Shown here piece after piece: positions 1,639 to 54,319 of a DNA stretch of 64,000 nt; the first letter of the stretch is position 1, and each line of letters begins with the position of its first letter. Below the pieces are notes generated by a model. That model saw only the letters and a list, made by a program, of their open reading frames with translations. It was not told where the DNA came from and searched no databases. The stretch is from Candidatus Babeliales bacterium (GTDB taxonomy: Bacteria; Babelota; Babeliae; Babelales; JANWKD01): positions 32,001 through 96,000 of the forward strand of contig CAVXJH010000005.1 of the NCBI GenBank assembly GCA_963762115.1, in the 5' to 3' direction. Both the position numbers and the translations under genes were made by a program.

Positions 1639-3114
1639 ATGAAAAAATTTTTAATAATAATACTTCTTCTTTATACAAGTAGAATACTATTAGCTACAGA
1701 GCTTGCAAAAGAATTGGTTACATTAGAATCAACGCTTAATGCACTGAATAAAGCTTTATCTGTTTCAAAAAAAACACCTAGCATTGTTCCTGGATCTAAA
1801 GTTGTTCCTGAATTTGTAACGTTAGTAAGAAATTCAGAGCATTTTGATAAAAAAGCAGTTAAAAAAGGTAAAAAATCACTCTTTCCTACCCGCGAAAATC
1901 GAATTGCAGTAATTGCTGCAAATGATACCACTAAACAAGCTGAAATTGTTGAGCAAGCAAGAACTACCTATCCTTTGTTGCACCCAAAAACTTTACTACT
2001 TATTCAGGGTTTTTTAGAAAACAAAAAAAAATATGGAAGTAATCTGGAAAAAGCTTTATATAAAACTATGAATGAAAAATCTTTTATTAATCGATTACTT
2101 ATCAAACGTCCATTAATGTTTATGACAGAATCAGATTCGTATCTTTTAAGGGATGGTTATACGCAAGGTGCTGGTGGATTTGAAGCAATTGGAACTAATC
2201 AAGAACAGCCACCATTAATTCTTGCTGACTATCTTTCTTATGATGAAATGCAAATTGCTACACTATTAGGCGTATCGGTGCCAACCTATTTTATTAACGA
2301 TGGCAATCGAAATAATAAAAGCATAAAAGGGGCGCCAGGAACTTATGAAGAAAAAGGTATTTATGTTGCATTGGTTGGGGCTCGTTTTGAAAGACCTGGA
2401 CTCATGGAATGGCAACATATGATTATAACCCCGGAACAAAACACTACACAACATGGTTATGGCATTGGTAATACATCTAACCCAGCTATTTCTTTATGGT
2501 CAAAAGTGTATGGTCTTCCTTTTCCAACGTATCAGGAAGCAGCACAAAATACTTCGGGAAGATATATTCCTTTTGATGGTGGTCAAAAATATTTTGATAG
2601 TTCCGTATATAAAGAACGTTTAAAGTTAGTTCTTGAGCCATTTTTACTTGATGCTCATAAACGAGCTATGCTCCAAGGAAAAAGATCCTATGTTCAAGTT
2701 GTTGGAATTGGTCTTGGCGTGTGGAGAAAAATTGATGAACAGTGGCAGTTGATGCTTGATACTTATGCTGAAATAATAAAAAAACATGATTTATCGCATA
2801 TTGCAGATATAAATTTCATTTGGTTTCCTGAATATGCAAATAGCTGCGGAGGCGTGAAAAATGGTGGCATATTCAAAACAAATACTAATGCAATTACTAT
2901 ACATTTCTCTACAAGGAATCCTACAGAAATGTTAAAAGGAAAAGATGCTGGTAAATTATTAGTAGCTTGCTATGCATGGGATGGAAATTCTTATCCGGGT
3001 AATGAATATTGGATTGGTTCGCTTACTGCTTCCGGGGACCCCGCTGCTGCATGCTGCTCGACCATTGCCGAATTGCAAAATCCAGAAATAAATAAGTTAT
3101 TTTTAGTAAAATAA
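1639..3114 (+). CDS. secreted DUF4804/MavL-like macrodomain protein
   Basis: Signal peptide; YLSYDEM, GARFE, YAWDGNSYPGNEYW and SGDPAAACCSTIAELQNP motifs. Confidence 0.8.
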   Translation: MKKFLIIILLLYTSRILLATELAKELVTLESTLNALNKALSVSKKTPSIVPGSKVVPEFVTLVRNSEHFDKKAVKKGKKSLFPTRENRIAVIAANDTTKQAEIVEQARTTYPLLHPKTLLLIQGFLENKKKYGSNLEKALYKTMNEKSFINRLLIKRPLMFMTESDSYLLRDGYTQGAGGFEAIGTNQEQPPLILADYLSYDEMQIATLLGVSVPTYFINDGNRNNKSIKGAPGTYEEKGIYVALVGARFERPGLMEWQHMIITPEQNTTQHGYGIGNTSNPAISLWSKVYGLPFPTYQEAAQNTSGRYIPFDGGQKYFDSSVYKERLKLVLEPFLLDAHKRAMLQGKRSYVQVVGIGLGVWRKIDEQWQLMLDTYAEIIKKHDLSHIADINFIWFPEYANSCGGVKNGGIFKTNTNAITIHFSTRNPTEMLKGKDAGKLLVACYAWDGNSYPGNEYWIGSLTASGDPAAACCSTIAELQNPEINKLFLVK

Positions 3115-4429: not shown

Positions 4430-4813
4430 ATGCATATTTTAGCAATCGCTATCGCTACTATTTCTTCTTTTGTTCTTGGGGCTCTTTGGTATTGCCCTTT
4501 ATTTGGTAAAATCTGGCAAAAAGCTGTTGGCATTTCAGATGAACAGATAAAAGCTTTAGGCAATGTGCCTTATGCAATCGCTCTTGCTTGCTCCTTCCTT
4601 GGCGCAATGGGCTTTAATTATTTAGTAATGAATTCAGTTTCATTAGAAAATAATATATTTGTAGGCTTGATGGTTGGCATCTTGGTGGCAACATCAATGT
4701 GCATTAACTATCAATTCTCTGGCCGCGATAATAAGGGTTTCTTGATTGATGCAGGATTCCATATTGCTCGCTTTGTTCTTTGCGCATTAGTTTTCTGGTT
4801 TATTAAAAACTAA
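4430..4813 (+). CDS. DUF1761-family membrane protein
   Basis: FVLGALWY..LFGKIW and FLIDAGFH motifs; four hydrophobic segments. Confidence 0.8.
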   Translation: MHILAIAIATISSFVLGALWYCPLFGKIWQKAVGISDEQIKALGNVPYAIALACSFLGAMGFNYLVMNSVSLENNIFVGLMVGILVATSMCINYQFSGRDNKGFLIDAGFHIARFVLCALVFWFIKN

Positions 4814-4823
4814 AAAATTAACC

Positions 4824-4878
4824 AAAAAGAGACGGCTCTTCAGGACTCATTGAGTTCCGAAGGGCCTTCTCTTTTTTT
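4824..4878 (+). terminator. intrinsic terminator
   Basis: Long imperfect GC-rich hairpin followed by a T run after the DUF1761 gene. Confidence 0.7.
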
Positions 4879-5249
4879 AAGCCAATTCACTAAATAAATA
4901 CATAAACTTAATCTCATTCTTAGATGGCCTCATGTCGGCCAGACATGAATATATTGCATGCCCAATATATTCAATACAAGGGCACCAACGTTCCGTTGGA
5001 TCTTTTTTCCCGCGCGAATATGCACCACTCCATTGTTGATGCCTTCAGCATCAAAATTCCAGGTGCACGTCGCACTACCAGACTAACTTATTTATAAATT
5101 TTTCTTACTTCAAGACGATAATCAGAACAACATTCAAAAAAAAATGTCATTCCTAACCTACGAACTTCGAAGAATCAAAAATAGCAGAGGCCTGTCCGCC
5201 ATAGTGATTGTGTTAAAAGTCAAATATTTTTTAATAAAGCTAAACAATA

Positions 5250-6191
5250 TTAAGCTTTACATAATTCACCTTTTTTTAGTAAAGAATTAGCAATCACAAT
5301 AAGTTTATGCATAATAGCTACGATAGCTATTTTAAAAGGTTTTTTAGAAGTTATTAAACGATCGTAAAGTTCCTTTAATGGGAGATGATATTTAATAGTT
5401 GTTAATGCACACATATAAAGCATATTTCTTGGAATAGTTCTTCCACCTCTGATGAATTTTTTACCCTTATAACTTCCACTTTCATTCTCATAAGGACAAA
5501 CACCAATGAGTGCTGATACTTTTTTATTACTTATTTGACCAAGTTCAGGAACGAATGATAATAATGTTGCAGCTGAAGTTTTGCCTATTCCTGGAATTGA
5601 CTCCAAAATTTTTGATTTTGTATTTAATTTTTCATCTTGCTGAATTAAATCTTGTATCTTTAAATCAATTGATTTGATTTCGCACTCTAAGATTTTGATA
5701 AATTTCTTTATACTTGATGCATATAATGCATGAGATGGATGTTTAGATCTTGTTTTTTCGGCAACTAAAAATTTTACCAAGTCATTTTTACGATTGACCA
5801 AAGCTTGTAATTTTTCTTGATTTTCGCTTTTGTTCATTATCTCATAATCAGGAGAATTTTTAGAAGCAAATTCAGCAATTTTTCGAGCATCAATTTTATC
5901 CGTTTTGCTTTTGCAGCCACTAGCAACAATATAGCCTTTTATTCTTCTTGGATCGATGATCCAAAGATAATAACAATTTTTTTTTAATATTCGAGCAAGT
6001 AATTTTTCATACCCACCAGTTGCTTCGCATGCAATTTGTTCGATATCATATTTAACTAATTCTTTAATGATCTCCGTTATTCCAACTTCTGAGTTTGATA
6101 CTTTTAAAGATTTTCCTATTGGATGGATATAAACATCTAAAGTGTTTTTTGAAATATCGACACCTATAAATACTTTTGATATATTTTTCAT
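5250..6191 (-). CDS. IS110-family DEDD recombinase/transposase
   Basis: GVDISK, CEATG, KTDKID (DEDD), SIPGIG and catalytic-serine loop NESGS. Confidence 0.97.
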   Translation of the reverse strand: MKNISKVFIGVDISKNTLDVYIHPIGKSLKVSNSEVGITEIIKELVKYDIEQIACEATGGYEKLLARILKKNCYYLWIIDPRRIKGYIVASGCKSKTDKIDARKIAEFASKNSPDYEIMNKSENQEKLQALVNRKNDLVKFLVAEKTRSKHPSHALYASSIKKFIKILECEIKSIDLKIQDLIQQDEKLNTKSKILESIPGIGKTSAATLLSFVPELGQISNKKVSALIGVCPYENESGSYKGKKFIRGGRTIPRNMLYMCALTTIKYHLPLKELYDRLITSKKPFKIAIVAIMHKLIVIANSLLKKGELCKA

Positions 6192-6400
6192 AAATACCTC
6201 TGGCTTGTAGACATGCGAGATCGTATGTACTTGATACGTCTCTAGTGATTGTTCGAGGTCATTTTTGTATAAGCTGATAGTCTCAAACTATGACACGGTC
6301 CTTTGAGACCAAGCTTGACACGAGATCTATCAGCTTCTCAAACAATTAATTTCAAAACAACTGATCATAAATTAACAAAATTTAGCTTTAAAATCATTTT
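6192..6400 (-). ncRNA. IS110 bridge RNA (target-binding loop ~6271-6336, donor-binding loop ~6197-6260); ends approximate
   Basis: 10-bp stem AAGCTGATAG/CTATCAGCTT encloses guides matching the flanks; second loop carries ACAATCACT and TACAAG matching the donor junction. Confidence 0.88.
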
Positions 6401-6558
6401 GATTTAACATACAAGCTTGCCAAGCCTGAAGGCGTGGATAAGCGAAGGGAAATGCTTGGCCTGCATAAGGCCGTTTTATAACAAACAAAATATCTTGTTG
6501 AAAAATACAAAATATATAATAATAAAAAATAAATAGTATTTATAACAAGTGAGAATCT

Positions 6559-6903
6559 ATGCAAATTGTTAAAGAAAAAATTACCCTTGAAGAACTAAAA
6601 AAAATGTCAGAGGAAATGTTTGGCAATTTGGTTAAAGCTGTTGTTGATATTGAACAAAAAATTATGGTTGTTGATGCTGACATGCATGCTGATGAAGAAG
6701 AGCTTTTATTAGAATTGGGATCAGAACAAAAAAACCTTTGGGGAATCAACATTCATCCTGATGAAGTTGATACTGAAAACTGGATAGAATTTGACTCAAT
6801 GATCAACATTCGTCCACGCTGTGACAACAAAAGCCGCTATGTACACAATCCAAAAATTAGAGAACAAATAATAAAAATTGTTAATCAATTGGTTAAAAAA
6901 TGA
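6559..6903 (+). CDS. DUF5674-family protein
   Basis: VKAVVDIE...MHADEE.LLL..GS.Q.NLWGINI...IEFDSMINIRP. Confidence 0.8.
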   Translation: MQIVKEKITLEELKKMSEEMFGNLVKAVVDIEQKIMVVDADMHADEEELLLELGSEQKNLWGINIHPDEVDTENWIEFDSMINIRPRCDNKSRYVHNPKIREQIIKIVNQLVKK

Positions 6904-7238
6904 AAATTCATCATACATCACTTACCATTGAACGCTGGTCAAGATTTTCACTCCTTGAACAATTAGCTAATGTTGGTAGTGATGTTGAACGCACAATCCA
7001 ATGGAAAAAAAGAGGCAATTTAGAATATAGTCAAAATGCATTTGAACGCGTATTAGAACTTTTAGACTTTACCATTGAAGACCCAAAAAATAAAAAAAGG
7101 CTCAGAGAAATCTTGCGTGTTCGCGAAGCATTGATAGATTATTTTATGTATAGCAATGAATATTCTTCCACCGACAAATCTTGGCAAGACTATTTTTATC
7201 AATTTAATTATGCTGCAGCAATGCAAAAAGGAAAATAA
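6900..7238 (+). CDS. conserved all-helical protein coupled to DUF5674
   Basis: ATGA overlap with upstream gene; RW..FSLLEQLANVGSDVER motif. Confidence 0.75.
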   Translation: MKIHHTSLTIERWSRFSLLEQLANVGSDVERTIQWKKRGNLEYSQNAFERVLELLDFTIEDPKNKKRLREILRVREALIDYFMYSNEYSSTDKSWQDYFYQFNYAAAMQKGK

Positions 7239-53140: not shown

Positions 53141-54319
53141 TGTATGTGTTCAGAGTTTCGGTGAATAATTTTTTACACAAAGTGGCAATCAAAGTTGAAT
53201 TGTAAGTTTTTTAATTCCTTAAACGGGTATGCCGGTTTCTTTCAACAATTCGGATGGTACTTTGCCATTCAAACCTTGATGCGGCCGATGTTCATTGTGA
53301 TAGAAATTATATCCAAGAACAGCATCTTTTAATTCATCGATTGTGTTAAAGATGGATCCTTCAATAACTTCATCATCAAAAGAACGCCAAAATCTTTCAA
53401 TTTTTCCATTTGTTTGTGGTCTATAAGGCAAAGTTCTTCGATGTTTAATCGCAAAATGAAGTAGCAATCGTTCAAAAGGATGATTTTTTAATTTTTCTGG
53501 CGTTGAACAAAACTCAGCACCATTATCTGTCAGAGCTTCATCAAAGGTGATATTATATCGTTGGTTCATATGTAAAATAATATCCATCATAGCAAAGGCA
53601 ACATCAATTGCCTTTAAAGATTCAATTACTTCGACCCAAACTATTCTCGAAAAATCATCAATTACACCCAATACAAAATATTTCTTTTTAGGTTCAGATT
53701 GTACAATTCCCTTAGGTAGGTAATGGCAATCTATATGAGCTAATGATCCTGCAAATGTTCTCACAATCTTTCTTTTTTCCTCTTGCACTAATTTAGTTAA
53801 TTTAGAAACACCATATTTTCGTAAAGTTCGATACACTGAACTTGCAGAAAAACCCTTTTTAATCAAAGGATTTTTTTTGAGGGCCGCAGCGATAACATAC
53901 CTATTTAAACCTGATTTTCGGTATTCCAAAATTTTTTTTACAAGGCTATCATCTGCAAGTGGAAGTTCCTCAAATTTAGGTTTAGGACCACGCCTTATAG
54001 GCAGTAGAAGTTCGGGAATTCCCTGGGCCGCTTTATAGCGCCCATAAAGTTTATAAAAATTCTGGAAACAGAGCTCCCTGGCTTCAAAAAATTCTCGAAC
54101 AAACCTAAATTGTGGATGCTTTTTTGCCTTAACAAGCTCATATTCTTCTACATATTTTAGCATGTACTTTATTGAATTACTAACCAAAGTAGGATACGAT
54201 GTATTTATACTCACAAAAGAACTCCTGTGTTAAAATTGTTAATATTTGCGTATTCTAATTCTAACTCTGATTTACTTTTGTGGGTATTTTTTTATTCACC
54301 GAAATTATGAACTTTTACA
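53141..54319 (-). mobile_element. IS481-family insertion sequence
   Basis: TGT...ACA ends; 28-bp terminal inverted repeats with 23/28 identity (53141-53168, 54292-54319). Confidence 0.9.
53219..54214 (-). CDS. IS481-family DDE transposase
   Basis: HIDC, VIDDFSR, LTDNGAEF, PYRPQTNGKIERF, HNEHRPHQGL. Confidence 0.95.
   Translation of the reverse strand: MSINTSYPTLVSNSIKYMLKYVEEYELVKAKKHPQFRFVREFFEARELCFQNFYKLYGRYKAAQGIPELLLPIRRGPKPKFEELPLADDSLVKKILEYRKSGLNRYVIAAALKKNPLIKKGFSASSVYRTLRKYGVSKLTKLVQEEKRKIVRTFAGSLAHIDCHYLPKGIVQSEPKKKYFVLGVIDDFSRIVWVEVIESLKAIDVAFAMMDIILHMNQRYNITFDEALTDNGAEFCSTPEKLKNHPFERLLLHFAIKHRRTLPYRPQTNGKIERFWRSFDDEVIEGSIFNTIDELKDAVLGYNFYHNEHRPHQGLNGKVPSELLKETGIPV

Follow-up and report, generated by a model that had tools for sequence, protein, structure and literature searches.

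An IS110-group element in a Candidatus Babeliales bacterium whose ends likely form a sigma-70 promoter when joined in a circle

The window analyzed here is a 64,000-nucleotide stretch of a Candidatus Babeliales bacterium genome (assembly GCA_963762115.1, contig CAVXJH010000005.1, positions 32,001 to 96,000 of the forward strand), and it contains an IS110-group element that reads on the minus strand (Table 1). Just upstream of the element lies a DUF5674 gene (6559-7238, plus strand), overlapped by a 112-residue open reading frame without a Pfam match, and just beyond its right end lies a second intergenic repeat of about 180 bp (about 4920-5105) with about 14-16 matches in the genome. Elsewhere in the window, a 491-residue protein (1639-3114, plus strand) gives a strong MavL-like ADP-ribosylhydrolase match (PF16062, E 9e-121). 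The genome holds five copies of the 1,213-bp element, with 0-1 differences and with flanks that differ between copies. A tblastn search of the genome found no match beyond these five, and the scan with a single protein of the genome contigs gave one locus. Four of the five copies are inserted in an intergenic repeat labeled REP-like from its sequence and from family scans. The fifth (C6:255179-253967) interrupts a transposase gene whose best NCBIfam match is IS481, below the cut-off; its IS481-like label likewise comes from sequence and family scans.

Comparison of filled and empty sites defines the element. Three uninterrupted alleles of the fifth site read exactly as left flank, one CT, and right flank, and nine empty copies of the REP-like repeat are of equal length with a single CT each. 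A core on both sides of the insertion and one core at the empty site, with no further duplication, is the pattern of an IS110 bridge recombinase. The ends are fixed because the three empty alleles carry one CT and the five copies agree; related elements have the same ends next to other flanks. The IS110 identity, ends, and CT core proposed in a preliminary description of this DNA were therefore borne out. That description had also let the promoter discussed below mark the boundaries on its own, a use that we rejected: around the element, a promoter site at least as good arises from 7 of the 99 CT-CT joins and, when any dinucleotide may serve as the core, from 377 of 4,031, so the promoter alone cannot set the boundaries.

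The 313-residue recombinase contains the PF01548 DEDD domain and PF02371, scores 190 bits against NF033542 (cut-off 140), and falls within the family range of 300-460 residues. It aligns to the IS621 recombinase (PDB 8WT6) with an E value of 1e-32 and 117 bits. Its residues D12, E56, D98, D101, and S238 are invariant in 17 sequences and are the equivalents, in this alignment, of IS621 D11, E60, D102, D105, and S241. The GAGG ahead of the start codon is invariant in 10 close elements. The predicted helix that it joins (helix 3 of the drawn structure) is 96% paired with no two-sided change, and the spacing differs in many distant elements.

A left end of 224 nt that holds the predicted bridge RNA, set against a right end of about 50 nt, is the layout of the IS110 group. 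This left end folds better than 200 of 200 shuffles (z -3.2). The two-loop structure was drawn from the window sequence and, so drawn, is favored by a covariation test, with two-sided changes in 11 of 33 pairs across 10 elements (0 of 500 shuffles). When RNAalifold was applied to the 10 left ends, it recovered the target loop and the inner donor-loop stem and gave no consensus 5' stem; the donor-guide pairing that it produced was rejected as an artefact. Rfam returned one match, below threshold and outside the element. The four guides (LTG, RTG, LDG, and RDG) match target and donor and change along with them, and among 10 close elements whose targets differ, 9 have a right guide that fits 3-4 of the 4 target bases. 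A handshake after RDG has been described for IS621 (PMC11208158, available text). Here, C6203 is complementary to the G before the core in 5/5 targets, and 17 of 19 elements, which are not independent of one another, have a handshake base complementary to the base at target position -1 (0 of 10,000 shuffles); this match supports the core position.

Table 1. Features of the element and related sites, in window coordinates
Feature	Position	Strand	Basis or remark
Whole IS110-group element, 1,213 bp including both CT cores	5203..6415	-	Five copies and empty alleles
Left CT core	6414..6415	-	Copies and empty alleles
Right CT core	5203..5204	-	Copies and empty alleles
Left part of interrupted REP-like intergenic repeat	6416..6449	-	Comparison of copies with empty alleles
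Right part of interrupted REP-like repeat	5190..5202	-	Comparison of copies with empty alleles
Single CT of empty allele of fifth insertion site, in intact IS481-like gene (54214-53219)	53591..53592	-	
IS110 bridge recombinase, 313 aa	5250..6191	-	PF01548 and PF02371, NF033542
Shine-Dalgarno-like GAGG, 5 nt before ATG	6197..6200	-	Also 3' arm of predicted DBL basal stem
-35 half TTGACT (5/6), 13 nt from core	5218..5223	-	Outside guide-paired donor
-10 half TATGTT (4/6), 2 nt from core	6406..6411	-	Overlaps right donor arm and inverted repeat
Predicted bridge RNA	6196..6399	-	Start inferred about 7 nt after -10
Predicted 5' stem-loop	6396-6347	-	Single-sequence folds
Predicted target-binding loop	6336-6271	-	
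Predicted donor-binding loop	6259-6196	-	
Left target guide plus core	6312..6320	-	8/9 match to repeat target
Right target guide plus core	6288..6294	-	Complementary to CT-ATG
Left donor guide plus core	6244..6252	-	9/9
Right donor guide plus core (6209-6204) and first handshake base C6203	6203..6209	-	
Left donor arm (LD), 7 nt, identical to LDG	5205..5211	-	Guide-only calls
Right donor arm (RD), complementary to RDG	6410..6413	-	
Right-end arm of 7-bp subterminal inverted repeat, TTTAACA	5211..5217	-	
Left-end arm of inverted repeat, TGTTAAA	6403..6409	-	Overlaps -10
Rival internal promoter-like site TTTAAA-17-TATGAT (9/12)	6364..6392	-	Not conserved in relatives
Rival flank-hybrid site TTGGCA-16-CAAAAT (9/12)	6396..6423	-	-35 from repeat

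When the two ends are joined through one CT, the sequence reads TTGACT-17-TATGTT, with a spacer of 13 + 2 + 2 = 17 nt. The hexamers, cores, and distances that had been described for this junction are all present on the minus strand, and the promoter points, as proposed, into the left end and the recombinase gene. The hexamer pair matches the TTGACA/TATAAT consensus at 9 of 12 positions. This score is background in such AT-rich DNA: a plain scan of 4800-6700 gave 9 sites at 9/12 against 9.9 expected. Among random CT-CT joins in the genome, a straddling site of at least 9/12 arose in 576 of 20,000, and a -35 of at least 5/6 together with TAnnnT arose in 99 of 20,000 and, at the exact register, in 36 of 200,000. 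A promoter at independently fixed ends is thus unlikely by chance, at about 0.5-3%. The host encodes RpoD, over the family cut-off, and regions upstream of host open reading frames (n = 780) show a peak at spacers of 16-18 nt (55/44/43 against 13-33 at other spacers; 36, 23, and 26 at the same spacers in antisense). Few host -10 candidates read TATGTT (2 counts). In the five integrated copies, neither hexamer has a good flank partner at 16-18 nt, and an outward promoter from the integrated right end was considered and rejected. The proposal that the promoter is assembled only on circularization therefore stands for this hexamer pair and does not extend to all expression of the element, since two other 9/12 sites are present in the integrated state.

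Conservation across related elements carries more weight than the score. We collected 115 loci in 99 clusters at 85% protein identity. The right end was examinable in 83 clusters, and a core was called in 68 of these and in none of the other 15, a call requiring CT and 7 nt that match the donor loop exactly, with the promoter not used. At least three of the 68 calls (L014, L037, and L078) look wrong and were kept in the counts. Left ends were called in 32 of 60 elements, with 28 left without a call. The rules used are stricter replacements for a first automatic end-caller that produced many ties in distant elements. In 48 of 68 elements, the distance from the core to a hexamer matching TTGACA at 5/6 or better is exactly 13 nt, and each other offset from 7 to 19 has at most one element; the same holds for 39 of the 57 elements less than 45% identical to the query and for 25 of the 32 whose hexamer does not overlap coding sequence. 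TTGAC has a pairwise identity of 0.63, compared with 0.34 and 0.29 for the flanking columns, and the sixth base varies towards consensus, with TTGACA in several relatives. At the left end, 22 of 32 elements have TAnnnT at 2 nt from the core, with at most one at other offsets, and the full promoter with a 17-nt spacer is found in 19 of the 32 elements with both ends called. The -35 of at least 5/6 at 13 nt is absent from 20 of 68 elements (a few probably through wrong core calls), and the full hexamer pair from 13 of 32. All of these counts overstate independence because related elements share descent. The split sigma-70 motif, as first described from the window, proved real and in a conserved register at both ends (48/68 right ends and 22/32 left ends), and conservation on this scale makes a chance origin of the promoter very unlikely.

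Among 261 genomes of the window's phylum, 20 carry a relative at E <= 1e-30, and these relatives mostly have the same donor ends and different target guides. L003-L009 and L112 have near-identical donor ends with different target guides that match their own flanks, and G110 is a genome with two elements whose guides differ. Several individual elements vary at the ends themselves. L011 (G252) has CA rather than TG after the left core, with a change in the right donor guide alongside, and keeps the register as TTGACT-17-TATGAT. The element at L014 and L027 (G013) apparently has a TT core, not CT, which the CT-only caller miscalled, and keeps TTGACT-17-TATATT. An 18-nt tandem duplication of the left terminus gives L005 (G064) two cores and two -10 boxes, and L009 (G230) has one base fewer between -35 and core, hence a 16-nt spacer. 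The recombinase gene of many relatives (right end 20 nt) stops at a TGA that forms part of the -35 hexamer.

The two halves of the promoter differ in what else they overlap. The -10 shares its first two bases with the guide-paired donor arm, and the 7-bp inverted repeat starts with its last four. A likely reason for its off-consensus middle is that these bases double as donor arm and inverted repeat. The preliminary description had taken the promoter as evidence for the boundaries independent of the guide matches; this does not hold for the -10, which shares its first two bases with the RDG-paired arm. The -35 lies outside the guide-paired donor. The -10 is confounded with donor recognition, and the -35 is therefore the clean evidence for a promoter. 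Across 27 elements, positions -8/+6 are complementary in 22 (shuffle mean 13.7); the outer inverted-repeat pairs do not exceed shuffle in this set, and only inner pairs covary. The 7-bp inverted repeat is perfect in 7 of 32 elements, and one of these shows a compensatory change.

We conclude that the right-end -35 and the left-end -10 likely form a sigma-70 promoter with a 17-nt spacer upon CT-CT circle joining, with a probability of roughly 0.88. The overlaps just described could instead mean that the hexamers are conserved as a recognition sequence of the recombinase or a host factor and only incidentally resemble a promoter. The position of the -10, wholly inside the donor arm and inverted repeat, and the -8/+6 covariation are what such a sequence would show, and 36 of 68 elements have the end of the coding region or its stop codon overlapping the site of the hexamer. 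We nevertheless regard this as very improbable, given that the -35 is separated from the guide-paired donor by poorly conserved columns, is conserved where it is clear of the gene (25/32), and varies at its sixth base towards consensus. Moreover, a 22-bp IS621 donor without the -35 recombines with bridge RNA in trans (PMC11208160, available text).

It is also quite improbable, in our assessment, that a promoter of the integrated state is the main driver, with the junction promoter minor, as in ISPpu9 (PMC12288879, available text). Two candidates were considered, one internal and one a hybrid with the repeat flank that is present in 4 of 5 copies; both equal the junction at 9/12, and the internal TATGAT is nearer consensus than TATGTT. 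Against them stands the scan in which sites of this quality are no more frequent than chance predicts. In addition, the integrated left end lacks such a site in 11 of 16 relatives, no relative has a site at the position seen here, and only 3 of 16 carry one ahead of the target loop (at -13, +8, and +32). Transcription from the internal site would begin within the predicted 5' stem-loop, an argument that rests on single-sequence folds because RNAalifold gave no consensus 5' stem. These sites might supply low basal expression for a first excision. Lastly, the promoter would never form if the true junction were elsewhere, for example through the TATG common to the left end and right flank. In each of the five copies, a G precedes and ATG follows the element, and comparing the copies alone therefore gives 1,217 bp. 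The empty sites decide here, since the three fifth-site alleles equal left flank, CT, and right flank exactly, the nine empty repeats have the same length and one CT, and relatives carry other flanks beside the same ends. A TATG core was rejected on the single-CT empty alleles, and a junction elsewhere is extremely improbable.

The circle joint itself was sought in several places. The joint of 6415 to 5203 was absent from the contigs of 4/4 runs (two other joints); contigs drop rare forms, so this result does not speak against a circle. In the related loci checked for left-end 16-mers downstream of the right end, no circle joint was found. L010 alone had such 16-mers, 195 nt from the right end, and was rejected as a junction for that distance; L036 looked junction-like by eye and was rejected. 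The right-end motif had 0 matches in viral contigs.

Target sites bear on what the target-binding loop would select. ATG follows the core in 5/5 filled sites and in 0/9 empty copies of the REP-like repeat, which read ACG, TCG, or ACA there; within the repeat, the difference is 4/4 filled against 0/9 empty (Fisher p 0.0014). All four ATG repeat copies are filled, which suggests that the preferred target may be saturated. Four non-repeat sites with a 6/7 left match plus ATG are all empty, and a looser repeat pattern finds three empty ATG sites with other left arms. Because empty well-matched sites exist, guide match alone does not predict occupancy. At the fifth copy, the left flank matches the guide at 1/7, and the site fits only the right guide and the handshake base. 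Half-match insertions are reported for IS621 in the available text of a preprint (10.64898/2026.08.31.748434), so the fifth copy is likely a natural half-match insertion, judging from its flanks.

The proposed mechanism is, by analogy, that published for IS621 and ISPpu10, in a new family member. An integrated copy would make little recombinase and bridge RNA, through low read-through or weak transcription from flank or internal sites. The donor-binding loop would pair both ends, and a circle would form through one CT. On a double-stranded junction, the promoter would start near 6399 and yield a burst of bridge RNA and recombinase mRNA. The target-binding loop would then direct insertion at CT-ATG sites, mostly in the REP-like repeat, and the promoter would be split again. 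We infer circle formation, the start near 6399, the burst, and silencing on reinsertion as steps. According to the available text of the preprint cited above (10.64898/2026.08.31.748434), IS621 excises mostly as a single-stranded circle, and second-strand synthesis would therefore be needed before the promoter could work.

Precedents for such a promoter come from several IS110 relatives, cited here from the text available of each source. A sigma-70 junction promoter at the joined right and left ends has been shown for IS621 (PMC11208160), which is weakly transcribed, by read-through, when integrated (PMC13626964). In the ISPpu10 circle, the right end contributes the -35 and the left end the -10 of a strong hybrid promoter (PMC12288879), and ISEc21 (IS110) and ISEc11 (IS1111 group, Pjunc) form circles with a promoter at the abutted ends (PMC11187229). 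The preliminary description's statement that junction promoters are established for IS110 thus holds for IS621, ISPpu10, and ISEc21 and is not universal, because ISPpu9 of Pseudomonas putida forms circles without one, as described in PMC12288879. The closest parallel is IS621 (E. coli; PDB 8WT6): both elements have a DEDD and Ser recombinase, a CT core, a REP-type target, a long left end with target and donor loops, a handshake base, and a short right end. They would also share a sigma-70 junction promoter, shown together with the circle for IS621 (available text) and inferred here. The two differ in a distant protein (117 bits), in guides and target repeat, and in left-end length (224 nt here, 191 in IS621). 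ISPpu10 and ISPpu9 of Pseudomonas putida are likewise IS110 elements inserted in REP sequences, the ISPpu9 core being AG rather than CT (available text). The target of ISEc21 is within the transposase gene of another IS (PMC11187229, available text), and the fifth copy likewise sits in a transposase gene, although its site fits only the right guide. A transposase labeled Candidatus Dependentiae (P0030), annotated as a protein only, is 70% identical and belongs to the same clade. Among the matches listed, papers on this lineage do not mention IS110.

The inverted repeat invites a more speculative reading. The available text of PMC11208160 gives subterminal inverted repeats of 2-3 bp in the IS110 group and 7-17 bp in IS1111; the element has 7 bp. 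IS1111 elements also carry their RNA downstream of the gene. Here, the RNA and its guides are upstream and the right end is about 50 nt, and IS1111 membership was rejected on those grounds. The clade may be an intermediate form of IS110, with a left-end bridge RNA and an inverted repeat of IS1111 length, in which the -10 would serve as promoter, guide-paired donor arm, and recombinase-binding repeat and the ribosome-binding site would double as the closing stem of the donor loop. The recombinase could then be self-limiting by covering the -10 and locking the Shine-Dalgarno sequence. We consider this combination unlikely and offer it tentatively. If it is true, the recombinase would limit its own burst twice, through an occupied -10 on the circle and a locked Shine-Dalgarno on the mRNA.

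The accepted mechanism of IS110 transposition is unchanged by this element. What the element provides is a clean natural example of the likely switch that turns IS110 elements on, in a lineage with small genomes; a single assembly shows its ends, guides, and handshake base together with the empty alleles. Its relatives, which combine a near-constant donor with many targets, amount to a natural re-programming series, and one more bridge recombinase for genome editing could come from it.
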